Positions 28,941 to 58,031 are shown, counted from the first letter of the stretch. The stretch is 64,000 nt of DNA from a virus (IMGVR_UViG_3300005573_000057:1-64000), one strand, 5' to 3'. Notes: a model not told the origin generated them from the sequence alone. Numbers and translations are program-made.

Positions 28941-29150
28941 TTATGCCGTGAAAGTAGAGCGCGAATTTCTTTCGTACAACTTCCGCAGTTCCGATAGCGT
29001 CTTGTACGCAAAATCTGGGTACTCGAATCCAGGAAACAGCGTGCAAACGGAATCTGCGAGTATGTTGTCGTCGTCGTAAACTTCTGCAAGTCGGGTACTG
29101 CCCTTTGCGGGGTAACTTTTCAGGTATTGTTCTGCTTCAAAACTGTTCAT
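28941..29150 (-). CDS. Early hypothetical protein behind a cassette-type leader
   Basis: Preceded by the conserved promoter/RBS junction (GATAAGGAGTTGGCCATG). Confidence 0.7.
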   Translation of the reverse strand: MNSFEAEQYLKSYPAKGSTRLAEVYDDDNILADSVCTLFPGFEYPDFAYKTLSELRKLYERNSRSTFTA

Positions 29151-29220
29151 GGCCAACTCCTTATCAATGTCTACAACTAAATTATAGACTACTAACAACA
29201 AAAGTCAAGAAAAGATTTCT
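29148..29220 (-). repeat. Conserved junction (stop/-35 overlap, N16, TATAAT, RBS), copy 1
   Basis: GAAATCTTTTCTTGACT-N16-TATAATTTAGTTGTAGACATTGATAAGGAGTTGGCCATG. Confidence 0.9.
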
Positions 29221-29933
29221 CGATTCACGGAAACTACAGCACTATCGGAGATCTTGGCACTTCCATAGACATGAGAATCCCCAAAGATTCGAGCATAACC
29301 GAAAATCTGAGCATCACCGAAGATTCGAGCATCACCGAAGACACGACCAGCATCGAAGACCCGAGCAAAACCGTAGATCATCGCGTTACCGTAGACCCTA
29401 ACATTTCCGTAGACCTTAGCATTTCCAAAGACATGAGCATTTCCAAAGACTAGAGCACGACAAAAAACCCGAGCATTCTCGTAAACCCGAGCCTTCCCAA
29501 AGACCCGAGCATCCCCATAGACCCATGCGTTACCAAAGATCCGAGCATTCCCATAAATTATAGCATTCCCAAAAATCCGGGCGTTCCCAAAGACCCAAGC
29601 ATCCCCGTAGACCCAAGCATTTCCGAAAACTTCGGCCCTTCCATAGATCTGAGCATTCTCAAAGACCCAAGTGTTCCCGAAGACCAGAGCATTCCCACAG
29701 ACCTCGGAATCCCCAGAGACCCGAGCGTTTTCGGAAACCCGAGAATTCCCGTATACCCGCGCATCGTCGGAGACCCAGCATGATCCCCGATGACTCAAAT
29801 TCTTTTCGGATTCAATATAGCCGCCTTTGTCTCCAGTACGAACATCACCGAAATCGCGCAAAGCGCGGATACGGCAGAGAGTGTGACCATTAACTTCAAT
29901 GGTTTCATCTTTCAACAGTTCGTACTTAACCAT
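29205..29933 (-). CDS. Hexapeptide-repeat (left-handed beta-helix) protein, paralog A1, 242 aa
   Basis: KYELL...RIRALRDFG.V..GDKGGYIESEKNLS..G.CWV head followed by GNARVF-type repeats; ends EIFS. Confidence 0.9.
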   Translation of the reverse strand: MVKYELLKDETIEVNGHTLCRIRALRDFGDVRTGDKGGYIESEKNLSHRGSCWVSDDARVYGNSRVSENARVSGDSEVCGNALVFGNTWVFENAQIYGRAEVFGNAWVYGDAWVFGNARIFGNAIIYGNARIFGNAWVYGDARVFGKARVYENARVFCRALVFGNAHVFGNAKVYGNVRVYGNAMIYGFARVFDAGRVFGDARIFGDAQIFGYARIFGDSHVYGSAKISDSAVVSVNREIFS

Positions 29934-30002
29934 GACCAACTCCTTATCAATGTCTACAAGTAAATTATAGACCGTCTACCAAAGAAGTCAAGAAGAAATT
30001 TC
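29931..30002 (-). repeat. Conserved junction, copy 2
   Basis: GAAATTTCTTCTTGACT-N16-TATAATTTACTTGTAGACATTGATAAGGAGTTGGTCATG. Confidence 0.9.
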
Positions 30003-30590
30003 TTGATTCCCTGAAATCAAAGAGTCCCCAGAGACCCTAGCATTTCTGTAGACCCAAGCATTCTCGGAGACCTGAGCATTGCCAAAGACCTGAGCATTTT
30101 CAAAAACATGGGCATCCCCACAGACCTCAGAATTCTCAAAGATCTGAGGATTCCCATAGACACAAGCATCCCCATAGACTAGAGCATCCCCAAAGACCCG
30201 AGCATCACCGTAGACCCAAGCATTTCCAAAAACTTCGGCCCTTCCATAGATCTGAGCATCCTCAAAGATCCAAGTGTTCCCGAAGACCAGAGCGTTCTCG
30301 TATACCTCACTATCCCCAGAGACCCGAGCATCCCCATAAATCATAGAATTCCCAAAAACCCGAGCATCGCCGCCGACCCAAGCGTTCTCGGAGACCCGAG
30401 CATTCTCAAAGACCCGAGCATCGTCGGAAATCCAGCAGTCTCCATCTTGACTCAAATTGTCTTCGGATTCAATGTAACCGCCCTTGTCACCTGCACTAAC
30501 ATCACCGAAATCGCGCAAAGCGCGGATACGGCAGAGGGCGAGACCATTGACTTCAACGGTTTCATTTTTCAACAGTTCGTACTTGTTCAT
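29988..30590 (-). CDS. Hexapeptide-repeat protein, paralog A2, 200 aa
   Basis: Same head and repeats; ends EISS. Confidence 0.9.
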   Translation of the reverse strand: MNKYELLKNETVEVNGLALCRIRALRDFGDVSAGDKGGYIESEDNLSQDGDCWISDDARVFENARVSENAWVGGDARVFGNSMIYGDARVSGDSEVYENALVFGNTWIFEDAQIYGRAEVFGNAWVYGDARVFGDALVYGDACVYGNPQIFENSEVCGDAHVFENAQVFGNAQVSENAWVYRNARVSGDSLISGNQEISS

Positions 30591-30649
30591 GACCAACTCC
30601 TTATCAATGTTTACAACTGAATTATAGACCAATCTCAAGAAATGTCAAG
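30588..30649 (-). repeat. Conserved junction / early promoter, copy 3
   Basis: CTTGACA-N16-TATAATTCAGTTGTAAACATTGATAAGGAGTTGGTCATG. Confidence 0.9.
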
Positions 30650-30656
30650 CCCCTAT

Positions 30657-31409
30657 TCAGAACGTGGTCACATCCTTGACAATGACACTACGCGGTAGGT
30701 GTGTATCCACAATGCTTTCATCCCCGTTATCGAATCCAGAACTACTTTCAATTAGTTGGGTAGCAGTATCGGCAAATGAACTTTCAACAGCGGTTCTATT
30801 ATATTTACTTATTTTTCTGTCCTTGACGTAGGCATCAAGTCTGGCGGATACCAGTGGAAGAAGTGAGCGCATATACTTACCAAGTTTTTGTTGGTTTGGC
30901 TGAAAGAACAAATGTTCAGCCGAAGTGAAAGATGATTGGACAGTTACATAATATTCGCCGTCATGCTTGTTAAGATATTTTTTGAACCTGTCTGTGTTTT
31001 CGTAATCACCTGTCCACGATTGAAGTTTGTTTAAGCCTGTATTCAAGGAAAGTTGCTTGTTTTTCAAAAGTTCAGAAAGTTTTTCAGATTTTTCTTTTCC
31101 TGTCTCTGCACTTTGGTAGATAGTTTTTTCTTTATCATTCAAAAATTGTAGAAGATGACGTTCATGATAAATTCGATACAGCGTCGAAGATCCTGGTTGG
31201 TAATTAGGTATCTTTTTTCTAAGTTCAAGAATTCCTTTAATATATTCGTTTTCTTCCGAATCTTTGAAGGTATTTTTCATGTATGTACCTTGAAACCACT
31301 CATAGATAAAATCGCCATATTTAGTCGTATCAAATAAAAAGTCACGAAATTCTGAGTCTGATTCTGGAAGATCGTATGATTCTAGCAAAAATTCTTTGAA
31401 TGAAAGCAT
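30657..31409 (-). CDS. Putative internal head protein with capsid-targeting-like N-terminus
   Basis: MLSFKEFLLES; TAACTA at 31438-31443 (-); LYR...LQSWT...E motif reminiscent of the ADP-ribosyltransferase fold (weak). Confidence 0.6.
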   Translation of the reverse strand: MLSFKEFLLESYDLPESDSEFRDFLFDTTKYGDFIYEWFQGTYMKNTFKDSEENEYIKGILELRKKIPNYQPGSSTLYRIYHERHLLQFLNDKEKTIYQSAETGKEKSEKLSELLKNKQLSLNTGLNKLQSWTGDYENTDRFKKYLNKHDGEYYVTVQSSFTSAEHLFFQPNQQKLGKYMRSLLPLVSARLDAYVKDRKISKYNRTAVESSFADTATQLIESSSGFDNGDESIVDTHLPRSVIVKDVTTF

Positions 31410-31436
31410 GATGGTCTATGGTTTGGTAAATATCTT

Positions 31437-31670
31437 CTAGTTATAATTTCCGATTTTGAAGACGGGACTAATTGATTTTCCGTCCAAAAGAGAATTACCT
31501 TTGCAAATGCTCCACGCAACGAACCCGCGCTTGATACATTCCTTTTCTGCGATTGCAAAATGCGTTTCTCTGCTGTTCCGGGCATCTAGGATGACGACAC
31601 TGCGATCGCCACAAGCTTCGAACAGAGAATTCGATTCAAGGCCATAATTGTAAAATTGGGCATAGATCAT
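31437..31670 (-). CDS. Early hypothetical protein
   Basis: MIYAQFY...EACGDRSVVILDAR; GGAGAG RBS; TTGACA-N16-TATAAT at 31701-31728 overlapping the gp5 stop. Confidence 0.7.
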   Translation of the reverse strand: MIYAQFYNYGLESNSLFEACGDRSVVILDARNSRETHFAIAEKECIKRGFVAWSICKGNSLLDGKSISPVFKIGNYN

Positions 31671-31724
31671 GATTTCTCTCCGCGTTTGATGTACAAATGA
31701 ATTATAGACCGCCCACAAAAAATG

Positions 31725-34172
31725 TCAAGCTGTATCTGTGACTAACGCAAGTCCTTGTGCTACGACCCTGTTGTTGTGTAACGTCAGGCATTGCTTGCGG
31801 TTCCCGGCTGGGTTGTAAGAAATATGAATCCATCCGGTATCACCATGCAGATTCTCCAGCAAAAGTTGATCATAGTCAAGTGACCCTGCTAGGTCTGTGG
31901 CTATTTCAAGAAGTCTAGCCCGATCAGCGTTGGGGAAGAAAAAGTCGGCTGCTTGACCCAGATAGTGCTGCGAATGCTTGGCCGATGCTGCCACATCCCC
32001 TGGCCTACGGAACCCCGAAGTGATCTGCATAGTAGGATACTTGGCATAGACCTTTTCCGTGACGTTGTTGGCGTGCTGAACAATGTTGGTTGCTATCTGA
32101 GGCGGTGTCAGTCCAAACTGGTTGATCAATGGCCTTGATCCATTCTTAGTGTAGGTTCCCATTGTGAAATTCGGGCTAATCTGCAAGGACGGCGGATATG
32201 TCTTCATTCCAGAAATCTTGGAACAATCAATTACAGTTCCTTTGATTGTGCTTGTTGGTGTTGCTGCTGGAGCTACAGTGATTTTATCAGTCTGTAAGAC
32301 AGACTTTCCGACATTTCCCATAGCCACCTGATTCTGGACAAATGCAGTCGAATCTCCCGAGTCGGGTTCATCATAGTTCTGCATCACAGTTGACGATGCA
32401 GTTGGGGTGTACAATGGATCAAAAGTTGGTACTGGATTGGACGCCGTTGCCAGAGTCCCTAGAACACTGTTGAACGAACTTGTACCGCTTTGTGTGTACA
32501 TTGCCGCACCATCCTCATTGATTGTTCCCCCAGCAACAACGTTCATGTTACCGGATGCCTTGGTGTCAAAGTCTCCACCATAAGCTTCCATTGAAATAGA
32601 TTGTGCTTTCAGAGCGAAAGATCCTTGCACATTTTGTGTCATGTTGCCTTGACATTCGAGATTGACATTTCCGGCAACATACAGATTCAGAGAATTTTTG
32701 ATGTAGACTGATTGGCTACCGTCGATTGTGACTGATGCGTTACCCTTGATGTAAAGAAATCCATTGCGTTCAAGAATTTCGTAATTGTCTCCAATGATGC
32801 GTGTGACCAAAGTTCCATTGCAGTCAATTTCCCGAAAGGTTCCCGAACGATGGTATTCATGAATGCGTTCACTGTGAGGGGTATCGTCGTACTCGATCAC
32901 GTGGCCCGATTCTGTGGCATATACCTTGTTGAACGGATATTGAGCATTGTATGGCGTGTGTGGTTGATCCCATGTTGCAAGACCGTGTGGATCTGCCGGG
33001 ATGCCAGTGATTCTCGTATTGTTCTTTTTGAATACAATCGTTGAACCAAGTTGCTCTGCTCTGGCTAGTCTGTTAGTGTCTGGTTCATTGTAATAGGCAG
33101 GCCATTTTCCATCTGGATCAACAAATCCTTGTGATTGTGACGTATAAGCTGATTGTTGGCTTGTAGAATTACTGACACCAGGAACAAAAGGTGCTACAGT
33201 GGCATTAGAAGGGGCAGGAACGGCCCCGGAAGATGCTGGTGTCACTGTGCCCGTGGATGAATCTGGAACCCCACCAGACAAGAAATAAGACTGTTCCTTG
33301 CTTCGACGATTAAAGAGACCATTGATTGTGACCAAAGCGCCATTCACATGCCCCTTATCCCAATCGAGGAAGTGTTCTGCTGCTTCGTGATACTTGGCAC
33401 TGTCCAAAACTGATTTCAGTGTCGAACCGCTAAATGCTCCTGAACCGATGTTGTAAGCTAAGGAACAACAAGCATCGAACATCTGTTGCGTTAGCGGTGC
33501 CTGAATAGTTTGGACGATTGGAACAGTATTCGATTGTAAAAATTCCGTGAATGCTGCTGTAGCTTGAGATTGTGTGATGACTTGATTGGCAACAACTGGA
33601 GAACCATTGATCGAAGTTGAACCGTACCCGATTGTCCATACTCCTACGGAATCCTGATAGGAAGTAAGACGCAAGGATTCAAAGCCTTGGATCAAACTAA
33701 CCCCGGCTTCCGAAATTGTCATGGCCGATGGACTACTGACCCCCAATGTTGGCAGGGTGCTTGCACTAGATGGAACAGGCGGTGTGAAAGCTGGTGGCGA
33801 TGATGGTGGTAAGGGGTTGACAGGGGTTGGGGCTTGACCATCCGACAAAACATTGATGTTATTATTCCCAATGGTCTGAAATTGATCGCTTTGTGGAATT
33901 CCCCCAATCGTTCCGAGAACAATAGGGTATTGTTGGAATGGATCAGCGAACACAACCAAAACAGTCGAACCTTGTAAGACACCTGTTGGACTGCTTCCAA
34001 TCCCATTCAAGGATGCATCACTGATTCCAGCCACGACAACAGCCCAAGGCAAGTCTGCTGTTGGTAATTCGTTTTTGTCGGCAGTGTGGAGGCCATGAAT
34101 TCTGACCTGAACGCGACCATCCTTTAATGGATCATTTCTGTTTTCGACAATTCCAGTAAAGTACGTTTGCAT
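31725..34172 (-). CDS. gp5: Baseplate hub / tail lysozyme with additional C-terminal M15 peptidase domain
   Basis: GIVENRNDP..GRVQVR..G.H, DLPWA OB-fold; FESLRLTSYQDSVGVWTIGYG GH24 lysozyme; YPFNKV..TESGH..EYDDTP; SGFRR...SQHYLGQAADF...WIHISY. Confidence 0.92.
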   Translation of the reverse strand: MQTYFTGIVENRNDPLKDGRVQVRIHGLHTADKNELPTADLPWAVVVAGISDASLNGIGSSPTGVLQGSTVLVVFADPFQQYPIVLGTIGGIPQSDQFQTIGNNNINVLSDGQAPTPVNPLPPSSPPAFTPPVPSSASTLPTLGVSSPSAMTISEAGVSLIQGFESLRLTSYQDSVGVWTIGYGSTSINGSPVVANQVITQSQATAAFTEFLQSNTVPIVQTIQAPLTQQMFDACCSLAYNIGSGAFSGSTLKSVLDSAKYHEAAEHFLDWDKGHVNGALVTINGLFNRRSKEQSYFLSGGVPDSSTGTVTPASSGAVPAPSNATVAPFVPGVSNSTSQQSAYTSQSQGFVDPDGKWPAYYNEPDTNRLARAEQLGSTIVFKKNNTRITGIPADPHGLATWDQPHTPYNAQYPFNKVYATESGHVIEYDDTPHSERIHEYHRSGTFREIDCNGTLVTRIIGDNYEILERNGFLYIKGNASVTIDGSQSVYIKNSLNLYVAGNVNLECQGNMTQNVQGSFALKAQSISMEAYGGDFDTKASGNMNVVAGGTINEDGAAMYTQSGTSSFNSVLGTLATASNPVPTFDPLYTPTASSTVMQNYDEPDSGDSTAFVQNQVAMGNVGKSVLQTDKITVAPAATPTSTIKGTVIDCSKISGMKTYPPSLQISPNFTMGTYTKNGSRPLINQFGLTPPQIATNIVQHANNVTEKVYAKYPTMQITSGFRRPGDVAASAKHSQHYLGQAADFFFPNADRARLLEIATDLAGSLDYDQLLLENLHGDTGWIHISYNPAGNRKQCLTLHNNRVVAQGLALVTDTA

Positions 34173-34173
34173 T

Positions 34174-35421
34174 TTAGCAGTCTCGGGATAGTTCTATGAT
34201 GCATTCATGCTTGTTAACCGTGATGAAATGCTCAATTGCTGTTACAATATAAGTTCCACTGACTTCGGTATCCAAAATTTCTTTCGTGGTATGATCCGTG
34301 GGTTTGTTCGCATATTTATAGACATTCATCAACTGTCCAACTGTGTAGTCTGTACGGCCATACATGACAACCTTGATCCGATTGCTGGTCAACTGCTTCA
34401 ACAAGCTTTGCCGATGTTGCATTGCTGCAATTTCAGTCACATCCCCCCATCCGGTAAACGAACCGTAGTCTCGTGTCATGTTCCATATCTTTGCTTCATT
34501 GCTGACAACAAGATTAGGCCCAAACAACGGATCACGGTTCAAATGTGAAGTTTTCGCAAAGGAACTTGGATAGTCGAACTTGACAGTTTGGTAGTTCTTC
34601 CTGAGCAAGTCATAGCTGAACAGGGTGCTTCCCAATGCCCCACTTTCCAACATACCCAGGTAGTCATAGCTCGTTCCAGAAAACCCCCATTGCAAAGCGC
34701 GTGAATACTCTGCATTCATGTCACGGTTGACTGACGCCACATCCCGCGTGTAGTGGTCAATGAATACGTTTTGATAGGGAGATTGACGATACAACAACGA
34801 TAGGCTCTTGAAATTCAAACCATAGCGATCCTGATAGAATAGATAGCTGGGTGCGTTGTCCTTTTGGGATTTTGCTCGTTCGGCAAGAAATTTAATATTC
34901 TTGAGAGGCGACCAATAATTGCTGACGTACTTGATACTGTTAGATGTTGGTTCAATGGCGAACGGCAATTCGGATGCAAGGAATCTTTCATCTGATATTA
35001 AGGATTCAATCAGGCTGTCAATTTTCCCGGAGAATGCTCGGGATAGGGCTTTGTTGGCACTGACAATTACATCCCGAGTACAAAAGCCCAGAGTATAACT
35101 TTCCGACTTATCACTATCTTGAGTCCGTTCGCCAAGATTGTAGACATAGAATAAGCCTTCGATAGCTTGGAGTTTATCCATTGTAGGTGTAATGATGGAC
35201 AACTCCAAGACTTCGCTTCCCTGCAAAGGCAACACATTGGTCAAAGCCAATGCATCTGAAATAATAATCTTTCCTGTTGTGTAACCATACAAATCTTCGA
35301 AAATCTGGATTCCATTCACAACATTGAGCAAGTTCACCACGGTTCCGGTGGAACTCGTGATGGACAAGGTGTTGATGGAAACCTGACCGGGGAATGCAAG
35401 TTTGTCGATGTTTTGGGCCAT
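34174..35421 (-). CDS. Baseplate hub protein (gp27-like)
   Basis: IFEDL..TG.I.I.D, LPLQG.E, WSP...I, YLFYQ...G.NFKSL, SG.YIVTAI.H; lies between gp53 and gp5. Confidence 0.7.
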   Translation of the reverse strand: MAQNIDKLAFPGQVSINTLSITSSTGTVVNLLNVVNGIQIFEDLYGYTTGKIIISDALALTNVLPLQGSEVLELSIITPTMDKLQAIEGLFYVYNLGERTQDSDKSESYTLGFCTRDVIVSANKALSRAFSGKIDSLIESLISDERFLASELPFAIEPTSNSIKYVSNYWSPLKNIKFLAERAKSQKDNAPSYLFYQDRYGLNFKSLSLLYRQSPYQNVFIDHYTRDVASVNRDMNAEYSRALQWGFSGTSYDYLGMLESGALGSTLFSYDLLRKNYQTVKFDYPSSFAKTSHLNRDPLFGPNLVVSNEAKIWNMTRDYGSFTGWGDVTEIAAMQHRQSLLKQLTSNRIKVVMYGRTDYTVGQLMNVYKYANKPTDHTTKEILDTEVSGTYIVTAIEHFITVNKHECIIELSRDC

Positions 35422-35425
35422 AATA

Positions 35426-35944
35426 TCAATTCGATAGCAAAGTAACCATCTGCTTCTTGATTGTTGGCAAGTAGATAGGATCAATCAAGACGATCTGACG
35501 CTTTGCGTCATTGACATTCATTTCATAGGTATAGTTGTCCACTGGCAACGCACCGGGATAAGTGGAGTCAACAATCAAACTTCCATCCGGTGTGGTATAA
35601 TGATGGGTTGCGTATTGATTGCCTGCACCATATTTCTGAATGACATAGGCGTTGACCTGACTAAGTGACATAGGCCAATCCAAGGTGTAGTCAAAGATGT
35701 TATTGGCAATCATGATCAGAAAATCATAGTAGGGAGACCCATAGTACAATTCCGAAACAATCCAAGGTGTCTGACCATCCTTGATTTCATAAGGAAGGTA
35801 TGTTCCTAGTCCTTGAATCATGTCAATCGTTGGCCGGAGATTTGCCGTAATATCCGTCATGACTAAAGGAACAAATTGACCACTATCCGCATCATAAAAC
35901 GGATAGTAGAACGTACCGAAATTTGAGAAATATTCTGTTGCCAT
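35426..35944 (-). CDS. gp53: Baseplate wedge subunit
   Basis: YFSNF, Y.IKDG.TP..VS..YYG, N.I.D...DWP, KYG, HHY, N..KR.I.L. Confidence 0.88.
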   Translation of the reverse strand: MATEYFSNFGTFYYPFYDADSGQFVPLVMTDITANLRPTIDMIQGLGTYLPYEIKDGQTPWIVSELYYGSPYYDFLIMIANNIFDYTLDWPMSLSQVNAYVIQKYGAGNQYATHHYTTPDGSLIVDSTYPGALPVDNYTYEMNVNDAKRQIVLIDPIYLPTIKKQMVTLLSN

Positions 35945-35946
35945 GA

Positions 35947-37086
35947 TCAATACCCTTGTTGAATGACTTCTTTGGACATAAGGCCAAGTTCTGTAAATTC
36001 GACTTGCATATCAATGCGTGGAATGTCGCCATTGGCAATTTGCTTCCAAACTCTGTCTGGAGTAAAATTGATGGATACATTCGTCAAGGCACATGTTCCA
36101 ATTCTAGGGATGTTGGTATTTTCGTTAGGCCCCATGAAGAATCGAATATCGAACTCGGAAGGATACAGATACAGAAATTCTCCTGGAGAAACAAACTCTG
36201 GCATCATGTGGAATCTCAAAAGATACAAGATGTTCAGAACTTCTTGAAATTCTGCTGCATTCCTCGGGCCAAATTCGAAATTGAATGTAAAGACCCGGAA
36301 ATTGACCCCATGAAAGACTTTCTCCATTCTTGGGTTAACTGCGAGACCCGTCATGTTGCTCAATGCTGGGCTTGCCTTCAATGCTGCCATTGCCGTAATT
36401 TGGTTCACAGCATTTCCAGTTGTGCTACCTGATTGACCATTCGTGGCTGCATTCCCGACTGCATCGTAAACCACTTTAGCAATTTGACCTACACCCGAAG
36501 CTTTACCATGACTTTTTTCGTAAGATTCGGCTTGGCTCACTGCGTTGGCCGCTGCCCCGAATGCCGTGGTTTCGGCGTCCCCCCAGCTTGTCTTATAGTC
36601 AAATCCTACTTGGTTCGGCATGTACAAAACAATTTCTTGGGCAATTCTGGATGTTGCGCGTGTTGTGGATGGTGCGACGGCTGTTGCCAATCGTGCTCCC
36701 ACTCCCTCGGTAACTGCGCCCCCTGCTGAGCCTGTGGCTACGGCTTTGATTCCACTGCCCTTGAGCAAGCCTAGAACGCTCCCTGCGCCCCCAGCAATGA
36801 CGCCCCCTACCCCACCCTCTAGTGCTGCTGCTCCATCGGTTGCATTCTTGCTCAGTCCAAGGCCAACCAAAGTTCCCCGATTCGGTGTAATGTTAGCTTG
36901 TGTAGTACCATAGGAAGATTCAAACTTGCTGCCAACTAACTGATTGATACGGATCACCATGTACGGTTGGTTGTCCATGTTCAATTCTTGCGGATACTTG
37001 GTCTGGGAATAGTCGTATTTGCTATTTGGGCCTGCGGTTTGGGAAATGTTCAATTGCCCGGTATTTGTTGTTGGTACGGATGCCAT
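35947..37086 (-). CDS. gp48: Baseplate tail tube cap
   Basis: LYMP, NPRME..F.G..FR.F.F.F.F.PRN..E, YPSEFDI, CALT.V..NFTP, F.E. Confidence 0.88.
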   Translation of the reverse strand: MASVPTTNTGQLNISQTAGPNSKYDYSQTKYPQELNMDNQPYMVIRINQLVGSKFESSYGTTQANITPNRGTLVGLGLSKNATDGAAALEGGVGGVIAGGAGSVLGLLKGSGIKAVATGSAGGAVTEGVGARLATAVAPSTTRATSRIAQEIVLYMPNQVGFDYKTSWGDAETTAFGAAANAVSQAESYEKSHGKASGVGQIAKVVYDAVGNAATNGQSGSTTGNAVNQITAMAALKASPALSNMTGLAVNPRMEKVFHGVNFRVFTFNFEFGPRNAAEFQEVLNILYLLRFHMMPEFVSPGEFLYLYPSEFDIRFFMGPNENTNIPRIGTCALTNVSINFTPDRVWKQIANGDIPRIDMQVEFTELGLMSKEVIQQGY

Positions 37087-37091
37087 GTGTC

Positions 37092-37120
37092 TCGACTTTC
37101 GGTTGTCTTTCTGTTATAAT
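37092..37120 (+). promoter_or_regulatory. sigma70-type promoter TCGACT-N17-TATAAT for primase
   Basis: -10 box ends 6 nt before the ATG at 37127. Confidence 0.55.
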
Positions 37121-37126
37121 TTCAAA

Positions 37127-38188
37127 ATGCTAAGTGATTTCGACGAACTACTGATAGAACTACCGCTGGTGAATGCGTTGTCTGTGCGAACTGCAAATTT
37201 TGCGCAAAAACGTAGTCGCTTGTGGAATTTCTCATGCCCCTATCCCGACTGTGGTGACAATGCAACACGTAAAGATCGGGCACGTGGATATATTTTTGAG
37301 TACAAACATCGTTTGCAATACAAATGTCATAATTGTGGCCGATCTTCCCTATTTTCTACACTGCTCAAAGACCAATTCCCGGATATTTATCAAGAATTGA
37401 AAATCCAGCGATACAGGGAAAAACGAAATTCGGCTCCTATACAGTATTTAGACGAAACGAAAGAAGCCGACCCACCAAAACAAACGATTGTCGAACCCCC
37501 TTGGGTTTCGATTGCAGACCTTGATGCACATCATCCGGCCTATCAATACGTCTTAAATCGCAAGATTCCTCGGTCACGCTGGACAGACCTCTACTATGTT
37601 GAAAAATATGGTGAATTTGTCCGACAGATGGGCCAAAAGAACTCACGCTTAGGAAACGATCCAAGAATTGTGTTGCCTTATCGTAGCAAAGATGGTAAAC
37701 TCATAGGTTTCAGTGGGCGTTCGATGGATCTAGTTGACAATCGGTATAAATATTTGTCTGTCAAACTTGACGATGATGCGGAAATGGTTTATAGATTGAA
37801 CGAATTGTCAACCAATCGACCATTCATTGTTGTGGAAGGCCCTATAGACAGCTTATTCCTAGAGAATGCGATTGCCGTGTCGGGTGCAAAACTTGATGCC
37901 CCAAGTGTTGTCAAGGAAAATAGTCGAAGGGCTATCCTTGTTGCTGACAATGAACCCAGATCAAAGATCATTGTCAAGAACATTGCGCGATACATTGATG
38001 AAGGATATAAAGTTTTCTTGTGGCCTCCTAGTTGGAAATACAAGGATATTAACAAGGCAGTTCAAGAAGGTGTGGAAGCCGAATCCATTGAACGGATGAT
38101 TCTGGATGGTTCGGCAAGTGGAATGAAAGCAAGAGCAAATCTTGCATTTTGGCGTCAAGACATAGACATAAGGAAAAATCATGAGTAG
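37127..38188 (+). CDS. gp61: DNA primase
   Basis: CPYPDCGD...ARG...YKCHNCG Zn finger, GFSGR, VEGPIDSLFL.NAIA, DNEPR, KDIN. Confidence 0.95.
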   Translation: MLSDFDELLIELPLVNALSVRTANFAQKRSRLWNFSCPYPDCGDNATRKDRARGYIFEYKHRLQYKCHNCGRSSLFSTLLKDQFPDIYQELKIQRYREKRNSAPIQYLDETKEADPPKQTIVEPPWVSIADLDAHHPAYQYVLNRKIPRSRWTDLYYVEKYGEFVRQMGQKNSRLGNDPRIVLPYRSKDGKLIGFSGRSMDLVDNRYKYLSVKLDDDAEMVYRLNELSTNRPFIVVEGPIDSLFLENAIAVSGAKLDAPSVVKENSRRAILVADNEPRSKIIVKNIARYIDEGYKVFLWPPSWKYKDINKAVQEGVEAESIERMILDGSASGMKARANLAFWRQDIDIRKNHE

Positions 38189-38762
38189 TGGACGAATCAA
38201 TCTCCTGAAATACAACATCGTTGGAATTAGTGGCCCCATTGGATCTGGAAAGGATACTGTGGCGAACTGGATTGCTCGAAACAGCCATCAACAATACAAC
38301 ATTGTATCCTTTGCAACACCACTGAGGGATGCTGCCAAGGCGATGTTTGGCTGGTCTGATTTCCAGTTACAAGATCGGGTTGCCAAGGAACAAGTTGACC
38401 CATTCTGGGGATTCTCCCCTCGAACCGCCTTGCAACTGCTTGGAACTGAATACGGCAGGCAAAAGTTGCGGGATGATGTGTGGATTCTTGCTGCAAAGCG
38501 TAAAGTTGATCAGAATCATAGTGTAGGCATTCATACAGTCATTCAGGATGTTCGATTTCAGAATGAGGATGAATTCGTTCGAAGTTACCCTAATCATCTA
38601 CGAATCTATATGGATTCTAATGAATCCCATCCTACCTCGACCCATGTATCCGAAGCGGGTGTCCCATTTCAAAGTGGAGACATTGTAATTTACAATGATA
38701 AGTCAAAAGGTCTTGTCGCTTTGGAAAATGTACTTAATACCCTATTCTCGTTTGGAGACTGA
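38181..38762 (+). CDS. gp1: Deoxynucleoside monophosphate kinase
   Basis: GISGPIGSGKDTVA, SFA.PL, PR..LQ..GTE.GR, DVRF.NE, H.SE.G. Confidence 0.92.
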   Translation: MSSGRINLLKYNIVGISGPIGSGKDTVANWIARNSHQQYNIVSFATPLRDAAKAMFGWSDFQLQDRVAKEQVDPFWGFSPRTALQLLGTEYGRQKLRDDVWILAAKRKVDQNHSVGIHTVIQDVRFQNEDEFVRSYPNHLRIYMDSNESHPTSTHVSEAGVPFQSGDIVIYNDKSKGLVALENVLNTLFSFGD

Positions 38763-38763
38763 A

Positions 38764-39438
38764 ATGAATACAGCCAAAATTGTTGCCTACAGCCAAGTTG
38801 CCCCGAATGCACTTGATGATCTTGAACTTCAAACTGTTCAGGAATTGATTGCCTATTTTGCTCGGGTGTCCAATCCATCCAACCAAAACAATGTTCAAAC
38901 ATCCGAAAAACTCATTACCTATCTGCTTAACCACAAACACTTTTCACCGTTCGAAATGGTGCATGCAACTCTTGAATTAAACACAACAAGAGATATTGCT
39001 AGACAAATTATTCGACACCGATCCTTTGCATTCCAAGAATTTTCTCAACGGTATGCCAATCCAGAAGCTCTTGGAACCGATTTGATTTTTCGAGAGGCAA
39101 GGATGCAAGACCCAAAGAACCGTCAAAATTCCATCGTTTGCACAGATCCAGAATTGGCCCAACAGTGGCTTCTGAAACAAGAAACAGTTCAGAATATTTG
39201 TAACGATGTGTACAATTGGGCAATTGAACGTGGGATTGCCAAGGAACAAGCCAGAGTTGTCCTCCCGGAAGGTTTGACAAAAAGCCGATTGCTCGTTGCT
39301 GGAAGCCTACGGTCATTCATTCATTACATTCAGGTTCGAACTGAGGAAGGAGTTCAGGCCGAACATCGGGAACTTGCTCGGGCGATTGCTGTAGAAATTG
39401 CAAAGATTTTCCCTCTAGCCATGAATTTTGTGCAATAA
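38764..39438 (+). CDS. thyX: Flavin-dependent thymidylate synthase
   Basis: ARVSNP, H.SPFE, RQIIRHRSF.FQEFSQRY, AKEQAR.VLP, Q.EHR. Confidence 0.96.
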   Translation: MNTAKIVAYSQVAPNALDDLELQTVQELIAYFARVSNPSNQNNVQTSEKLITYLLNHKHFSPFEMVHATLELNTTRDIARQIIRHRSFAFQEFSQRYANPEALGTDLIFREARMQDPKNRQNSIVCTDPELAQQWLLKQETVQNICNDVYNWAIERGIAKEQARVVLPEGLTKSRLLVAGSLRSFIHYIQVRTEEGVQAEHRELARAIAVEIAKIFPLAMNFVQ

Positions 39439-39831
39439 ACAGAAAGCGCCGTAAATCCCCGTCTGTTTACGGATGGGATATAAGGCGTCCTCTTGACTTT
39501 TGAATAAAATTAGAGTACACTACCTACTAAAGATATGTTAACAGCCACCAAAATCCGCATTTACCCGAACCTTAGACAAGAGGAATCTCTTGCCAAGGCG
39601 TTTGGTTGTGCGCGGTGGTACTGGAACAACAGTCTCATTGAAACGGAAAAGACGTATCAAGAAACCGGCAAAGGTCTTGGTCAATTTGATTTGAACAAGC
39701 GCCTTCCCGAACTCAAGAAAGAATACGAATGGCTTGCCGAACCCTATGCTCAGGTACTTCAATCTGTAAGTCTAAACTTGTCTCGTGCCGTTGAAGCTGG
39801 AAGCCCTGCCCTTTAGGGCGGAACAATTCAC
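39439..39831 (+). mobile_element. Internally deleted IS200/IS605-family element (left-end hairpin, tnpB 5' stub, right-end hairpin); left boundary approximate
   Basis: LE CGCCGTAAATCCCCGTC...GGATATAAGGCG; promoter TTGACT-N17-TACACT; RE GGAAGCCCTGCCCTTTAGGGCGGAACAATTCAC. Confidence 0.85.
39535..39816 (+). pseudogene. tnpB: Truncated TnpB (N-terminal HTH region only, no RuvC)
   Basis: KIRIYP...Q...LAKAFGCARWYWN..L...LPELKKEYEWL....QVLQ....NL.RA, then runs into the RE. Confidence 0.88.
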
Positions 39832-39847
39832 CCCAAAAGGAAAAATC

Positions 39848-42987: not shown

Positions 42988-42989
42988 TC

Positions 42990-43157: not shown

Positions 43158-43184
43158 ACTTGGAAATTGTTCTATACTTGCATT

Positions 43185-43234
43185 GTCAACTACCCCGGAT
43201 TGAAACCGCAAGGCTGATAGCTTGGTTGATCAGG
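43185..43234 (+). mobile_element. Probable 5' stub of an IscB/HEARO-type (IS200/IS605) omegaRNA
   Basis: GTCAACTACCCCGGATTGAAACCGCAAGGCTGATAGCTTGGTTGATCAGGG resembles the GTCAACTACCCC...GGCT..AGC..GTTGA(C/T)CAG element start. Confidence 0.55.
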
Positions 43235-43291
43235 GATGCCCATGTCTCCGATGATGTTCGGGTCTGTGAGAATGAAGAAATTTCTTCTTGA
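43235..43291 (+). pseudogene. 3' remnant of an eighth hexapeptide-repeat gene
   Basis: Reads DAHVSDDVRVCENEEISS*, ending in the conserved junction. Confidence 0.8.
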
Positions 43292-43348
43292 CTTTTGCTG
43301 TTAGTAATCTATAATTCAGTTGTAAACATTCACAAGGAGCGATCCATG
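43277..43348 (+). repeat. Conserved junction, copy 4
   Basis: GAAATTTCTTCTTGACT-N16-TATAATTCAGTTGTAAACATTCACAAGGAGCGATCCATG. Confidence 0.9.
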
Positions 43349-43912
43349 AAAAAATATGAATTGTTGAAAAATGACTCTATCCAATTTTCTGGTCATACCC
43401 TTTACCGTATCCGTGCTCTACGCAATTTCGGCGGTGTTCACGTGGGCAACAAGGGCGGCTATATTGAATCCGAAAATAACTTGAGTCACGATGGAGACTG
43501 CTGGGTATCCGACAATGCTCAGGTCTTTTGGAACGCTCATGTCACCGGGAATGCTCGGGTCTCCGAGAATGCTCAGGTCTTTTGGAATGCTCGTGTCTAT
43601 GGCAATGCTCGGGTCTCTGGGAGTGCTCTGGTTTTTGATAGTGCCGAGGTTTACGAGAATGCTCGTATTTATGAATATGCTCAAGTCTCCGGGAAGGCCC
43701 AAGTATCCGGGAATGCTCAAGTCTTCGGACGTGCTAATGTCTTTGAGAATGCTCTGGTTTATGGGAACGCTCGGGTCTACAAAAATGCTATGGTCTATGG
43801 TCATTCTAATGTCTTTGAAAATGCTCAAGTCTATGGAAGCGCTCGGGTCTACGGAAATGCGCAGGTCTATGGGGATACTCAGGTTTCTGGGGATGAAGAA
43901 ATTTCTTCTTGA
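43346..43912 (+). CDS. Hexapeptide-repeat protein, paralog B1, 188 aa
   Basis: Conserved head plus repeats; ends EISS. Confidence 0.9.
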   Translation: MKKYELLKNDSIQFSGHTLYRIRALRNFGGVHVGNKGGYIESENNLSHDGDCWVSDNAQVFWNAHVTGNARVSENAQVFWNARVYGNARVSGSALVFDSAEVYENARIYEYAQVSGKAQVSGNAQVFGRANVFENALVYGNARVYKNAMVYGHSNVFENAQVYGSARVYGNAQVYGDTQVSGDEEISS

Positions 43913-43969
43913 CTTTTTCTGTAGATGCTCTATAATTAAGTTGTAAACATTGATAAGGAGTTGGTCATG
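43898..43969 (+). repeat. Conserved junction, copy 5
   Basis: GAAATTTCTTCTTGACT-N16-TATAATTAAGTTGTAAACATTGATAAGGAGTTGGTCATG. Confidence 0.9.
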
Positions 43970-44515
43970 AACAAGTACGAACTGTTGAAAGATGACGCCA
44001 TTGTAATTGCTGGCCGAACTCTATACCGTGTTCGTGCTTTGCGCGATTTCGGTAATGTTCGTTCTGGGGACAATGGTGGCTATCTCGAATCCGAAAACAA
44101 TTTGAGTCAAGATGGAAACTGCTGGGTATCCGATGATGCTCGGGTCTTCGAGGATGCTTGGGTCTTCGATGATGCTCGGGTCTCTGGGAATGCTCAGGTC
44201 TTTGGAAATGCTCAGGTCTCTTGGAATGCCAAAGTATCTGGGAATGCTCAAGTATTTGGGGACGCTATGATTTATGGGGATGCTCGGGTCTCTGAGAATG
44301 CTCGGGTCTCCGGGAATGTTTGTGTCTATGGAAATGCCAAGGTCTACGGCTACAGTCATGTCTTTAGGAATGCTTTGGTCTTTGGGAATTCCGAGGTCTA
44401 TGGGCGTGCTTTGGTCTTCGATGATGCTCTAGTCTTCGATAATGCTCGGGTTTACGGAAATGCGCAGGTCTACGGGGATATTCAGGTCTCTGGGAATGAA
44501 GAAATTTCTTCTTGA
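43967..44515 (+). CDS. Hexapeptide-repeat protein, paralog B2, 182 aa
   Basis: Conserved head plus repeats; ends EISS. Confidence 0.9.
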   Translation: MNKYELLKDDAIVIAGRTLYRVRALRDFGNVRSGDNGGYLESENNLSQDGNCWVSDDARVFEDAWVFDDARVSGNAQVFGNAQVSWNAKVSGNAQVFGDAMIYGDARVSENARVSGNVCVYGNAKVYGYSHVFRNALVFGNSEVYGRALVFDDALVFDNARVYGNAQVYGDIQVSGNEEISS

Positions 44516-44572
44516 CATTTGCTAGGGATCATCTATAATTCAATCGTAAACATTGATAAGGAGTTGGTTATG
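44501..44572 (+). repeat. Conserved junction, copy 6
   Basis: GAAATTTCTTCTTGACA-N16-TATAATTCAATCGTAAACATTGATAAGGAGTTGGTTATG. Confidence 0.9.
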
Positions 44573-45244
44573 AACAAGTATGAACTCTTGGAAGATGACA
44601 CCGTTGAAGTCAATGGCCGTACCTTTTACCGGATTCGCGCTCTGCGCGATTTCGGTGATGTTCGTTCTGGCGACAAGGGTGGCTATATTGAATCTGAAAA
44701 GAATTTGAGCCAAATCGGAAACTGCTGGGTATCCGACAATGCGCGGGTCTTCGAGAATGCGCGGATTTTTGGGAATGCTCGAATCTTTGGGAACGCTATG
44801 ATTTATGGGAATGCTCGGGTCTACGATGATGCTCGGGTCTTTGGGGATGCTTGTGTCTATGGGAATTCTTCGGTCTTTTTGGATGCTTGTGTCTATGGGA
44901 ATGCTATGATTTATGGGACTGCTCGGGTATCAAGAACTTCTCGGGTATTCGGGAATGCCGAGGTCTACGAAAATGCGCAGGTCTCCGGTAATGATCAGGT
45001 CTATGGGAATGCCAAGGTCGCTGGGAATTCTTGGGTATTTGGGAATGTGAGAATCTTCGATGATGCTCGTGTCTTTGATAATTCTCGTGTCTATGAAAAT
45101 GCTCAGGTATTCGATAGTGCCCTAGTTTTCGGTAGTGCTATAGTCTCCGGTAGTTCTCAGGTCTTTGGGAATGCTCGGGTCTCGGGGAATGCTCGGGTTT
45201 CCGGGGACTCTCTGATTTCACGGAATGCAGAAATTTCTTCTTGA
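44570..45244 (+). CDS. Hexapeptide-repeat protein, paralog B3, 224 aa
   Basis: Conserved head plus repeats; ends EISS, but the junction reads TTGAA and has no -10 box (array end). Confidence 0.9.
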   Translation: MNKYELLEDDTVEVNGRTFYRIRALRDFGDVRSGDKGGYIESEKNLSQIGNCWVSDNARVFENARIFGNARIFGNAMIYGNARVYDDARVFGDACVYGNSSVFLDACVYGNAMIYGTARVSRTSRVFGNAEVYENAQVSGNDQVYGNAKVAGNSWVFGNVRIFDDARVFDNSRVYENAQVFDSALVFGSAIVSGSSQVFGNARVSGNARVSGDSLISRNAEISS

Positions 45245-45266
45245 ATTTTAGCAACTTCACCATGTA

Positions 45267-45302
45267 AGGCCAACGACCATTTAATTGTTCGTTGGCTTTT
45301 TT
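45267..45302 (+). terminator. Rho-independent terminator closing array B
   Basis: AGGCCAACGA...TCGTTGGCTT followed by a T tract. Confidence 0.75.
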
Positions 45303-45401
45303 GTATTCCAACTGACAGTGAATCAATTGTTCTGGTTGGCCCGTACTGAGCAAAAATTCAATATACTAACTAATACTATATTCCTCATTAGGAACCCAAA
45401 A

Positions 45402-45626
45402 ATGAAATCATTTAAGCAATTTGTGGCCGAACAGCGTATTTTTGAAGCTGATCTTTCCAAGTTTATTGACAAACGCACCAATCCTTCGACCGGCAAGGAA
45501 GAATGGGCATTCATTGATATTCACAAACCTGATAAAGTTTTCAAGTATTTTGGTACAGAAAAACCATCTGACGAGGAAATCCGCAAGGAACTCGGTGATG
45601 TAGAATATTTCAAAAATAACGGCTAA
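45402..45626 (+). CDS. Small putative internal head protein
   Basis: MKSFKQFVAE; TAACTA at 45367. Confidence 0.65.
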   Translation: MKSFKQFVAEQRIFEADLSKFIDKRTNPSTGKEEWAFIDIHKPDKVFKYFGTEKPSDEEIRKELGDVEYFKNNG

Positions 45627-45629
45627 AGC

Positions 45630-51580: not shown

Positions 51581-51589
51581 GTGAATGTA

Positions 51590-51618: not shown

Positions 51619-51640
51619 TCAAAAAACGAAAGAGGAAAAA

Positions 51641-52420: not shown

Positions 52421-52426
52421 AATAAA

Positions 52427-52900: not shown

Positions 52901-52902
52901 TC

Positions 52903-53780: not shown

Positions 53781-53781
53781 A

Positions 53782-55932: not shown

Positions 55933-56221
55933 AATCTATACCAAAGCTTTCTGTTTTTTTATCCTGTTTTCTTTTATAATATAAAATCAAGCTAATGTAT
56001 ATGATATTAGCAATCAAAAGAATGATCGCTGCACAAAAACTAAACCATTGATGCAAATGGGGGTAAAAGAACAAGTTCCAGATTGACCACCCAAAAAAGA
56101 ACAAATTAGTAATTACACTGAACCCCGCTACCATCTTGTGTTTAAGGATGACACGCACGTTGTTCAGAGTGAACCCAGCACCGGCAAGATTGAATGCTGC
56201 GTTGACTAGATCGGGAATCAT
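55889..56221 (-). CDS. Small multi-TM membrane protein
   Basis: Three hydrophobic segments; WGXWNLFFYP-like motif. Confidence 0.65.
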   Translation of the reverse strand: MIPDLVNAAFNLAGAGFTLNNVRVILKHKMVAGFSVITNLFFFGWSIWNLFFYPHLHQWFSFCAAIILLIANIIYISLILYYKRKQDKKTESFGIDFKLKRQHPDSSTTC

Positions 56222-56418
56222 TCTTGGTTATGCTGTGGCAACCACCCAGCACGTAGTAGATAGTCTTTGTGATCCAACAAAATTTCGGTGAGACTTCCAT
56301 ACCACGGCCCAACATGGGCGCAGCGACCACTGTCGTTTATGTCGAAATGCCCCCAGCCAGAACCCTTCACATGCTTTAACACGATTCCGGTTTCGTTTGT
56401 ATATTGTGTCTTTTTCAT
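56218..56418 (-). CDS. Hypothetical protein
   Basis: Coupled ORF in an early operon. Confidence 0.55.
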   Translation of the reverse strand: MKKTQYTNETGIVLKHVKGSGWGHFDINDSGRCAHVGPWYGSLTEILLDHKDYLLRAGWLPQHNQE

Positions 56419-56421
56419 GAT

Positions 56422-56610
56422 TTACGCCATCAGTTCATTGAAGAATTCGCGGGCAATTTCCTTACAGCCAAGAATATCATCAGCATGGCCGATGCACAAT
56501 CCAGCATCAATAATGGGTTGGCTATAACAATCATAGCCATCATCGACCTTTTGTGCCCAGACGGAATAACCAAGATCCGCATGACTCGCTATCTTCGCCA
56601 TCTTGTTCAT
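56422..56610 (-). CDS. Early hypothetical protein behind a cassette-type leader
   Basis: Starts MNK after GATAAGGAGTTGGTCATG. Confidence 0.7.
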   Translation of the reverse strand: MNKMAKIASHADLGYSVWAQKVDDGYDCYSQPIIDAGLCIGHADDILGCKEIAREFFNELMA

Positions 56611-56680
56611 GACCAACTCCTTATCAATGTTTACAACTGAATTATAGACCACCAATAGCAAAAGTCAAGAAAAAATTTTC
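56608..56680 (-). repeat. Conserved junction, copy 7
   Basis: AAAATTTTTTCTTGACT-N16-TATAATTCAGTTGTAAACATTGATAAGGAGTTGGTCATG. Confidence 0.9.
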
Positions 56681-57429
56681 TTGTTTTCGGCGACCCAAGC
56701 ATCCCCGAAGATCCAAGCATCCTCGGAGACATGAGCATCCCCGAATACCCGAGCATCCCCATAGACCCGAGCATTTCCATAGACCCGAGCATCCCCAAAT
56801 ACCAGAGTATCACCAGAGACCCTAGCAGTATCGTAGACCCGAGAATTCCCGAAGATCAGAGCATTCTCGAAGACCCAAGCATTTCCGAATACTTCAACCA
56901 TTCCATAAACCTGAGCATAACCATACACCCGAACATGCCCATAGACCCGAGCATATCTAAACACATAAGCATCCTCATAAACCTGAGAATCACCGAAGAC
57001 TTGAGCATTCCCATAGATACGAGCATCATCGAAAATCCGAGCATTCCCGTAGACACGAGCATCCTCATAAACCCGAGCATTTCCGTAGACACGAGAATGC
57101 TCGGAGACATGAGCATGCTCGTAGACCTGAGCATTCCCATAGACCCAAGCATCCCAAAAGACCCGAGCATCACAAAAGACCTGAGCATTCCCAAAGACAC
57201 GAGACTCCCCGAAGACCCGAGCATCATCGAAAATCCGAGCATTCTCGTAGACCCAGGCATCGTCATAGACCCAGCAGGTTCCATCTTGGCTCAAATTTTG
57301 TTCTGATTCAATATAGCCGCCCGTTTCGCCTGCACGAACACCGGGTAAATCGCGCAAAGCGCGGATACGGTAAAGGATGTGGCCATCGACTTCAACAGAA
57401 TCATCTTTCAACAATTCGTACTTGTTCAT
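56665..57429 (-). CDS. Hexapeptide-repeat protein, paralog C1, 254 aa
   Basis: Head variant RDLPGVRAG; ends KIFS in the junction. Confidence 0.9.
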   Translation of the reverse strand: MNKYELLKDDSVEVDGHILYRIRALRDLPGVRAGETGGYIESEQNLSQDGTCWVYDDAWVYENARIFDDARVFGESRVFGNAQVFCDARVFWDAWVYGNAQVYEHAHVSEHSRVYGNARVYEDARVYGNARIFDDARIYGNAQVFGDSQVYEDAYVFRYARVYGHVRVYGYAQVYGMVEVFGNAWVFENALIFGNSRVYDTARVSGDTLVFGDARVYGNARVYGDARVFGDAHVSEDAWIFGDAWVAENKKIFS

Positions 57430-58031
57430 AGCAAATCCCCATTCTGTATATCATAGACCTTAGCATCGCCATAGACTTCCGAATCGCCATAGACTTGCAC
57501 ATCGCCATAGACTTGCGCATAACCATAGATCTTGGAATGCCCATGGACCCAAGAATCCCCAAAGACATGAGCATTGTCGAAGACCTGAGCATCCTCGGAG
57601 ACTTGGGCACTGCCGTAGACACGAGCAAACCCAGCAACCAAAGCATAACCGGATACCAGAGAATCACCGTAGACTAGAGCACCCCCGCAAATCCGAGCTT
57701 TCCCACTGACTCCAGCGTTCTCGTAGACCTGAGCATTCTCGTAGACCTGAGCATGCCCATAGACCCGAGCATTCCCATAAATTTGAGAATTCCCAAAGAC
57801 CCGAGCATTTCCATAGATTCGAGCATCCCAAAAGACTATAGCATTTTCATAAACCCAAGCGTTCACCAAAACCCAACAGTTTCCATTTTGACTCAGGTTC
57901 TTTTCGGATTCAATATAGCCGCCTTTGTCGCCTGCGCGAACACCGGGTAAATCGCGTAAAGCGCGGATACGGTAAAGAACGCGACCATCGGCTTCAACAG
58001 TGTCATCTTCCAAGAGTTCATACTTTTTCAT
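57426..58031 (-). CDS. Hexapeptide-repeat protein, paralog C2, 201 aa
   Basis: Head variant RDLPGVRAG; AAGGA RBS; ATGA-coupled to C1 without the junction. Confidence 0.9.
   Translation of the reverse strand: MKKYELLEDDTVEADGRVLYRIRALRDLPGVRAGDKGGYIESEKNLSQNGNCWVLVNAWVYENAIVFWDARIYGNARVFGNSQIYGNARVYGHAQVYENAQVYENAGVSGKARICGGALVYGDSLVSGYALVAGFARVYGSAQVSEDAQVFDNAHVFGDSWVHGHSKIYGYAQVYGDVQVYGDSEVYGDAKVYDIQNGDLL

Follow-up and report, generated by a model that had tools for sequence, protein, structure and literature searches.

Promoter-coupled repeating units of YdcK-type beta-solenoid genes in a T4-like phage from hot springs

The genomes of T4-type phages harbour regulatory elements known as promoter early stem-loop (PeSL) cassettes (Arbiol et al. 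2010, PMC2839356; Comeau et al. 2014, PMC4122927). In such a cassette the stop codon of the upstream gene lies in an AT-rich stretch and is followed by a sigma70 promoter, a Shine-Dalgarno (SD) sequence and the initiation codon of the gene downstream, and a stem-loop (terminator/attenuator) is part of the arrangement (PMC2839356). PeSL copies are placed beside ORFans in plastic regions and recombine with one another, which gives rise to indels among related phages and to excised mini-circles. A second known component is the YdcK family of beta-solenoid repeat proteins (PF18836), which is very large and mostly viral, with at least 7,000 relatives among the matches listed. In temperate phages the family is represented by a single early-operon gene between cro-like regulators and ERF/SSB genes, and among 44 IMG/VR loci we found one copy in 38, two in one and four in tandem in one lineage (four near-identical contigs). 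Here we describe members of this family in IMGVR_UViG_3300005573_000057, the 140,449-bp virus record of a T4-like phage from hot-spring metagenomes, starting from its initial 64 kb (64,000 nucleotides, hereafter the window). What is new in this phage is that a YdcK-family early gene and a PeSL-type promoter cassette, both known, are joined in one repeating unit.

Ten paralogs with conserved heads and graded solenoids

A genome-wide tblastn search combined with a motif scan revealed ten intact paralogs at five loci (A to E, Table 1) and two 3' remnants, B0 in the window and D0 outside it, which occupy the heads of two arrays. An earlier note on the window had reported three loci with seven genes; its seven intact copies and one remnant were reproduced, coordinates and lengths included, from lists of open reading frames (ORFs) and by independent extraction, but for the genome as a whole its count is too low. 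All intact copies possess a gap-free head of 56 amino acids (aa), close to the 55 aa noted before, followed by unbroken hexads of the form [ND][AS]x[VI][YFS][GED] that are encoded by 18-bp repeats. There are 20 to 37 hexads per paralog and 265 summed over the ten genes, every one of them in register. The genes with the standard ending (six in the window, and those of 176 and 278 aa outside it) are without exception 2 mod 6 in length and thus differ by whole hexapeptides, as had been claimed.

All seven copies in the window match PF18836 far above the gathering cut-off (65-103 bits vs 30 bits), and PHROG 7964/5070, both without functional annotation, are matched with E-values down to 1e-103. 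The solved Salmonella YdcK structure (PDB 2F9C/2PIG) is matched at E 5e-23 over query residues 17-230, i.e. over head and solenoid, and models from AlphaFold (predicted local distance difference test, pLDDT, 76.6) and ESM Atlas (predicted template modelling score, pTM, 0.93) are solenoids. A Foldseek comparison with the PDB returned 2PIG as a weak match (E 2.7e-3), as is common for solenoids. Scores against the YdcK equivalog NF040481 of NCBIfam reach 90-113 bits vs a cut-off of 350, and the phage genes are thus relatives of YdcK but not equivalent to it. A homotrimer prediction for B2 scored 0.00, which gives no verdict either way, and NCBIfam and PADLOC searches of the paralogs and their neighbours gave no informative match. 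Membership in the bactofilins (PF04519; at most 24.3 bits vs the Pfam cut-off of 27.9) and in the hexapeptide acyltransferases (PF00132; 16.9-20 bits vs 27) was rejected.

The 3' ends of the genes hold a feature that the earlier note had not seen. Of the 53 closest homologs that were aligned, 43 carry a C-terminal domain of about 70 aa (CGCFxG..EF..THG..EY), and all ten phage paralogs are devoid of it, their solenoid ending directly in a promoter. A hidden Markov model (HMM) built from the 43 homolog C-termini did not find the domain elsewhere among the six-frame ORFs of the genome (best E 0.36). An impression that the small ORF62 resembles this domain was not borne out by the HMM search.

Set against 111 database homologs, the ten heads form one group (one change on the tree, with 0/500 shuffles as low; Shimodaira-Hasegawa-like approximate likelihood ratio test, SH-aLRT, 78), and this grouping fits an expansion within this phage lineage. 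With a synonymous divergence (dS) of 0.72 and a ratio of nonsynonymous to synonymous change (dN/dS) of 0.22, the heads are under purifying selection, so that the copies are old and all of them maintained. Indeed, only 66% of the third codon positions of the heads are identical between paralogs; the heads differ by 15-27% and the bodies are unique. The codons of the repeats, by contrast, are frozen: GGG reaches 63% vs 17% in the genome background, CGG 66% vs 16%, GTC 70 vs 22 and GCT 81 vs 34, whereas the heads of the same ten genes display ordinary codon use. Since this freezing is confined to the repeats, the 18-bp unit is evidently spread and homogenised as DNA; frozen repeat codons likewise occur in family members from other phages. 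Together with the gene lengths they back the proposal that repeat number changes by whole hexads. Furthermore, paralogs share blocks at shifted hexad positions, for example hexads 6-14 of A2 and hexads 3-11 of A1 (141 nucleotides (nt), 91% identity). The block-wise dN/dS of the repeats (0.3-1.0) is relaxed, positive selection is not clear, and variability within the hexad peaks at position 3 (3.0 bits), the sole highly variable one. The word hypervariable, under which the genes had been introduced, is therefore too strong for repeats of this kind and for heads under constraint.

Junction cassettes and their probable exchange

The junctions between the genes consist of TTGAC[AT]-N16-TATAAT, a predicted promoter with 11-12 of 12 consensus matches in a promoter scan, followed by a leader of about 25-30 nt with AAGGAG. 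The TGA stop codon of the upstream paralog sits within the TTGAC of the -35 box, and AAGAAATTTCTTC is found upstream of the -35 in junction cassettes; gene end and next promoter thus form one unit, as the earlier note had recognised. Its seven leader copies in the window were recovered as well (30 nt, 0-7 mismatches), and so was the ending of array B, where B3 has TTGAAT without a -10 box and is followed by a hairpin (z -3.15) and U-run. At the gene ends TTCTTGA is invariant while the peptide varies (ISS/IFS/IPS), so that the constraint there acts on the DNA and not on the protein. A perfect 12-nt palindrome, AAGAAATTTCTT, is located just upstream of the -35 box (window 43896-43907) and at the equivalent place in other standard tails; it might bind a protein, or might just be the AT-rich upstream element. 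No junction promoter is present between C2 and C1: the stop of C2 overlaps the start of C1 (ATGA), just as the start of C2 overlaps the upstream WYL_2 gene (ATGA).

Genome-wide, 11 of the approximately 30 TTGAY-N15-19-TAYAAT sites are copies of this cassette, of which six precede paralogs, four precede unrelated genes and one precedes a HEARO/IscB omegaRNA. Two of the unrelated genes, ORF62 and ORF115, open with the same first three codons as the paralogs, ATGAACAAG; ORF69 shares ATGAAC, and the fourth starts with ATGAAAGAC.

The 17-nt spacers of the cassettes form four cross-locus pairs with 15-16 of 17 identical positions (88-94%), compared with a background of 7-13: B2-B3 with D1-ORF115, B1-B2 with E1-omegaRNA, A2-A1 with D0-D2, and B0-B1 with A1-ORF69. 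In three of these pairs identity tops at 0.90 within the junction and drops on either side, and in the pair A2-A1/D0-D2 it remains at 0.80-0.93 into the downstream heads. The groups formed by tail similarity (B1/B2; A2/B3/D1; C1/E1) are discordant with the spacer pairs. Spacer pairs, discordant tails, the two remnants and the captured leaders point to recombination at and between cassettes as the probable best explanation of the junction pattern. The earlier proposal of cassette gain and loss at junctions likewise finds backing in the remnants, the cross-locus spacers and the promoter-leader copies (with ATGAACAAG or ATGAAC) on three unrelated genes.

The sigma70-type junction promoters look like an early class, since the starts of the structural genes are preceded, at a distance of 20-50 nt, by another motif, CTAACTA(W)T. 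This motif, which also precedes the internal-protein-like gene after B3, occurs on the (+) strand of the window at, among others, 8413, 11106, 14539, 15511, 21774, 45366 and 47988, and is likely a late-promoter box distinct from the T4 type. The T4-type late promoter itself, TATAAATA, was found at only three sites in the genome, none of them meaningful. Early expression, which the earlier note had stated too firmly, accords with the promoter type and with the position of the family in temperate phages.

Table 1. Paralogs, remnants, junctions and associated features (positions in the window unless marked genome)
Feature	Position	Strand	Description	Match
Paralog A2	29988..30590	(-)	200 aa, 24 hexads, end NQEISS-TGA	PF18836 E 7e-24
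Paralog A1	29205..29933	(-)	242 aa, 31 hexads, end NREIFS-TGA	PF18836 E 2e-30
Remnant B0	43235..43291	(+)	final 18 paralog codons (DAHVSD DVRVCE NEEISS) and stop; ..DAHVSDDVRVCENEEISS before the stop	
Paralog B1	43346..43912	(+)	188 aa, 22 hexads	PF18836 E 2e-18
Paralog B2	43967..44515	(+)	182 aa, 21 hexads	predicted beta-solenoid (pLDDT 76.6; Atlas pTM 0.93)
Paralog B3	44570..45244	(+)	224 aa, 28 hexads; -35 spoiled (TTGAAT), no -10	
Paralog C2	57426..58031	(-)	201 aa, non-standard end ..IQNGDLL	
Paralog C1	56665..57429	(-)	254 aa, 33 hexads, end NKKIFS-TGA	PF18836 E 1e-28; PDB 2F9C E 5e-23
Paralog D2	genome 77307-77936		209 aa, odd end; outside window	
Paralog D1	genome 76471-77001		176 aa; outside window; without junction promoter	
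Paralog E1	genome 105058-105894		278 aa; outside window	
Remnant D0	genome near 77991-78070		3' remnant upstream of D2	
Junction before A2	30591..30648	(-)	TTGACA-N16-TATAAT and 30-nt leader/SD; no paralog tail upstream	
Junction A2 to A1	29934..29991	(-)	stop inside -35; leader 2 mismatches	
Junction A1 to ORF69	29151..29208	(-)	promoter and leader before unrelated gene	
ORF69 (MNSFEAEQ..)	28941..29150	(-)	small unrelated gene after cassette leader	no family match
Junction B0 to B1	43288..43345	(+)	TTGACT-N16-TATAAT; leader diverged, 7 mismatches	
Junction B1 to B2	43909..43966	(+)	promoter 11/12; leader exact	
Junction B2 to B3	44512..44569	(+)	promoter 12/12; spacer 16/17 identical to post-D1 junction	
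Terminator-like hairpin and U-run ending array B	45266..45305	(+)	-17 kcal/mol, z -3.15	
Junction C1 to ORF62	56611..56668	(-)	leader exact; start codons ATGAACAAG	
ORF62 (MNKMAKIASH..)	56422..56610	(-)	small unrelated gene after cassette leader	
Promoter and leader copy without paralog	genome ~108590-108650		outside window	
HEARO/IscB omegaRNA-like 5' fragment	43183..43233	(+)	abuts remnant B0	18 bits (weak) and alignment to HEARO behind E1

Surroundings of the arrays, samples and relatives

Mini-elements of the IscB/omegaRNA type, which had also escaped the earlier note, are found in the cassettes. A complete HEARO/IscB omegaRNA is located behind the tail promoter of E1 (genome 104754-104997 (-), L061:1255-1498; Rfam RF02033, 93 bits vs a cut-off of 83), where it breaks the cassette leader just after ..GTTGTAGGTTGAT. 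About 50 nt homologous to the 5' end of this omegaRNA abut remnant B0, which suggests that a former paralog was cut short there by a mini-element of the IscB type. Similarly, a 29-nt element end, CCACCTTTTAACTGTGGCAAAAATGGAGA, occurs at genome 77119 and 104690 (-), i.e. upstream of D1 and downstream of E1, and at D1 element-derived sequence stands where the junction promoter would be; an Rfam scan of the D locus gave no match.

The genes next to the cassettes are ORFans placed between hub, head and tail genes. Those flanking arrays A and B (30657-31409 (-), 45402-45626 (+) and 45630-46109 (+)) start with MLSFKEFLLE, MKSFKQFVAE and MKTFNQFLLE, which look like the N-terminal capsid-targeting sequences of internal proteins in T4. 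Upstream of C2, and translationally coupled, lie an R2K-clade ATP-grasp gene (58435-59184 (-)) and a WYL_2 (Sm-like SH3) gene (58028-58462 (-)). The window further encodes the large terminase, portal, scaffold, a gp5-like hub with lysozyme and tail proteins, and a large HNH/homing-endonuclease-like gene is situated in the structural region (24890-26380 (-); PHROG 3339, E 9e-100). Outside the window, a transfer-messenger RNA (tmRNA) of betaproteobacterial type stands just upstream of E1 (genome 105921-106235 (-), L061:2422-2736; Rfam RF01850, 148 bits) and a cluster of five transfer RNAs at genome 103.9-104.4 kb; the two hint at a betaproteobacterial host.

The closest database relatives of the phage are distant T4-like myophages (about 37% identity in the hub, at most 50% in the portal), and a megablast search against phages gave no match. 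The exact leader sequence was not found in IMG/VR or JGI metagenomes, and the paralogs were present in none of five distant T4-like contigs examined. Two sequencing runs of two hot-spring studies contain the phage nearly unaltered. Logan contigs from these runs, compared over window 28600-45800, bridge B0-B1-junction, B2-junction-B3-terminator and ORF69-junction-A1 with 0-5 differences; the first 60 nt of B2 (43964-44023) are without bridging among the listed contigs, and loose contig ends are cross-matches to other paralogs or to the 108.6-kb cassette. Because contigs from both runs bridge these junctions without joints, the assembly artefact that had been raised as a possible objection is not indicated. 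In run X1 a Logan contig differs from the window at 26 positions, mostly at 40069-40491, with identical flanks; this is a strain-variable patch inside the genes at 39785-41282.

Origin and function of the units, and comparison with known systems

On balance we favour, with moderate confidence, the expansion within one lineage of a single early YdcK-type gene as promoter-coupled repeating units. Each unit would comprise a sigma70 promoter, a leader with AAGGAG, the 56-aa head, 20-37 hexads and a tail usually ending in ..EISS-TGA. The AT-rich last codons of the tail and its stop codon would serve as upstream region and -35 box of the next promoter, so that the junction would amount to a stem-loop-free PeSL-like cassette merged with the 3' end of the gene. 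Homologous recombination, acting between junction cassettes and inside the 18-bp repeats, could have copied, relocated and removed such units, in the way that PeSLs behave in T4-type phages. Transcription of each copy by the host RNA polymerase would take place early in infection, and read-through would accumulate along an array up to a terminator, as after B3. As to the products, our guess is that they bind host components in takeover or counter-defence, as rods without enzymatic activity that differ in length by steps and vary in surface; we also guess that the rods act without the C-terminal domain carried by most of the closest family members.

Several observations weigh against this account. 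The tree of the ten heads is an unresolved star, so that the duplications cannot be ordered, and selection on a strong promoter and ribosome-binding site (RBS) could partly explain the high identity of the junctions. No stem-loop was detected in the junction RNAs (folding vs shuffles, z -0.41 and -0.58). No genome comparison showed copies being gained or lost, because the best relative found has only about 50% portal identity, and no joints occur among the Logan contigs over the region compared, both runs representing almost the same strain. As regards function, a PADLOC search of the paralogs and neighbours gave no match, and literature searches, which covered the YdcK/PF18836 family in phages as well as hexapeptide proteins in anti-defence and bactofilins in prophages, yielded no functional paper; these results speak neither for nor against the binders or decoys against host defence suggested in the earlier note. 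The ten copies vary in net charge between -19 and +3 and in isoelectric point (pI) between 4.2 and 8.6, and a surface periodicity of three hexads that would mark an interface was not found; with such a range of pI and no distinct face, no single binding mode (e.g. DNA mimicry) fits all copies.

The strongest competitor, which we regard as possible though unlikely, is an ordinary old gene family: a few ancient tandem or segmental duplications, with the junction kept by selection on promoter, RBS and start and playing no role in gene movement. The head dS of 0.72 and the star-like tree indeed speak of old copies, no copy-number variant was seen in the two samples, -35, -10 and SD are precisely the parts that selection would retain, and other phages have tandem sets of two to four copies without promoter coupling. 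Yet the spacer, 17 nt with no known sequence requirement, is 88-94% identical in four cross-locus pairs vs 66% at third positions of the heads, and the tail groups disagree with those pairs. Old duplications would likewise leave the cassettes before four unrelated genes, the ATGAACAAG start shared by ORF62 and ORF115, and the remnants at the heads of two arrays to be accounted for.

A bolder form of the favoured expansion, to which we attach a rather small probability, treats gene and promoter as a self-propagating module. Junction recombination, possibly via excised circles, would then add, drop or reshuffle early-expressed solenoid rods that differ in length and surface, as an adjustable binder repertoire against variable host defence or surface-independent host factors, and loss of the C-terminal domain would be what made an ordinary early gene a cassette.

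Alternatively, the products might be self-assembling scaffolds, either bactofilin-like polymers or left-handed beta-helix trimers with a structural use in infection. Weak bactofilin matches (up to 24.3 bits), database records that name homologs 'polymer-forming cytoskeletal protein', and a surface rich in Tyr, Phe and Arg on all faces lend this idea some appeal, but every bactofilin score stays under the Pfam cut-off of 27.9, the three-hexad periodicity of a dedicated interface is absent, and the promoters are of early rather than late type; we judge it improbable. Enzymatic activity as hexapeptide-repeat acyltransferases (LpxD/LpxA-like), which some database names imply, is highly improbable: there are low-scoring Hexapep and LpxA/LpxD/GlmU matches and depositor names such as 'putative acyltransferase', but Hexapep reaches 17-20 bits vs a cut-off of 27 and NCBIfam enzyme models 16-28 bits vs cut-offs of 160-666, the hexads are without loop insertion or extra domain, and the C-terminal domain is wholly absent. 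Finally, we give practically no credence to collapse or expansion of repeats by the assembler, for although the metagenomic DNA is repetitive and Logan contigs break within the conserved head, the heads differ by 15-27% and the bodies are unique, several junctions are spanned, with 0-5 differences, by separate contigs of two runs that belong to two studies, and every one of the ten reading frames is open and subject to purifying selection.

Returning to the favoured expansion, its significance lies partly in how widespread YdcK-type solenoid genes are: few uncharacterised early genes of phages are commoner. Ten diverged and selected copies, most of them with their own predicted strong promoter, suggest that dose or variety matters early in infection, and the paralogs constitute a natural length series of 20-37 hexads. 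Pentapeptide-repeat DNA mimics (Qnr, MfpA, AlbG) are likewise non-catalytic rods of repeats that act by binding, and phages possess mimics such as Ocr. The comparison is an analogy only, since these proteins have a 5-residue repeat and a different fold, whereas the repeat here has 6 residues, and general DNA mimicry is a poor fit because the charge spans -19 to +3.

With the YdcK family (PF18836) the phage genes share both head and hexapeptide solenoid, and phage members elsewhere also lie in early regions; the difference lies in ten copies here as opposed to a single copy in 38 of the 44 IMG/VR loci. Tandem copies with differing repeat number are known from the IMG/VR contigs L079-L082 (four diverged copies, L079:5953-9076), from L073 (two copies with identical heads and about 4 and at least 17 hexads, L073:5902-6901) and from Bacillus phage vB_BauM_KLEB27-3 (gp175/gp176). 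The last pair (L062:3998-5709) is placed between genes for ribose-phosphate pyrophosphokinase and nicotinate phosphoribosyltransferase, a nicotinamide adenine dinucleotide (NAD) salvage cluster. These sets retain the C-terminal domain that the ten paralogs lack, their copies are spaced by 9-53 nt at one locus, and L079, the sole array inspected, showed no common promoter cassette.

The resemblance to PeSLs, drawn in the earlier note, is genuine. Junction and PeSL have the same order of parts and a predicted promoter of sigma70 consensus (-35 and -10 matched at 11-12 of 12 positions), occur as many repeats in a T4-like genome beside ORFans between blocks of core genes, and the cassette copies here also bear signs of exchange. 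However, the junction has no stem-loop or attenuator and is therefore not a full PeSL, the stem-loop being one of its defining parts. Moreover, the stop codon here falls within the -35 box, the AT-rich segment upstream belongs to a coding sequence, and the eleven copies are tied to a single gene family instead of unrelated ORFans: members or remnants of it stand downstream of six copies and upstream of eight. Capture of the cassette by other genes, and its invasion by IscB/omegaRNA mini-elements, make this locus a compact example of how plastic regions are built in T4-like genomes. The junction also extends the PeSL idea, in that the coding end of a gene and a regulatory cassette can overlap and then travel together.

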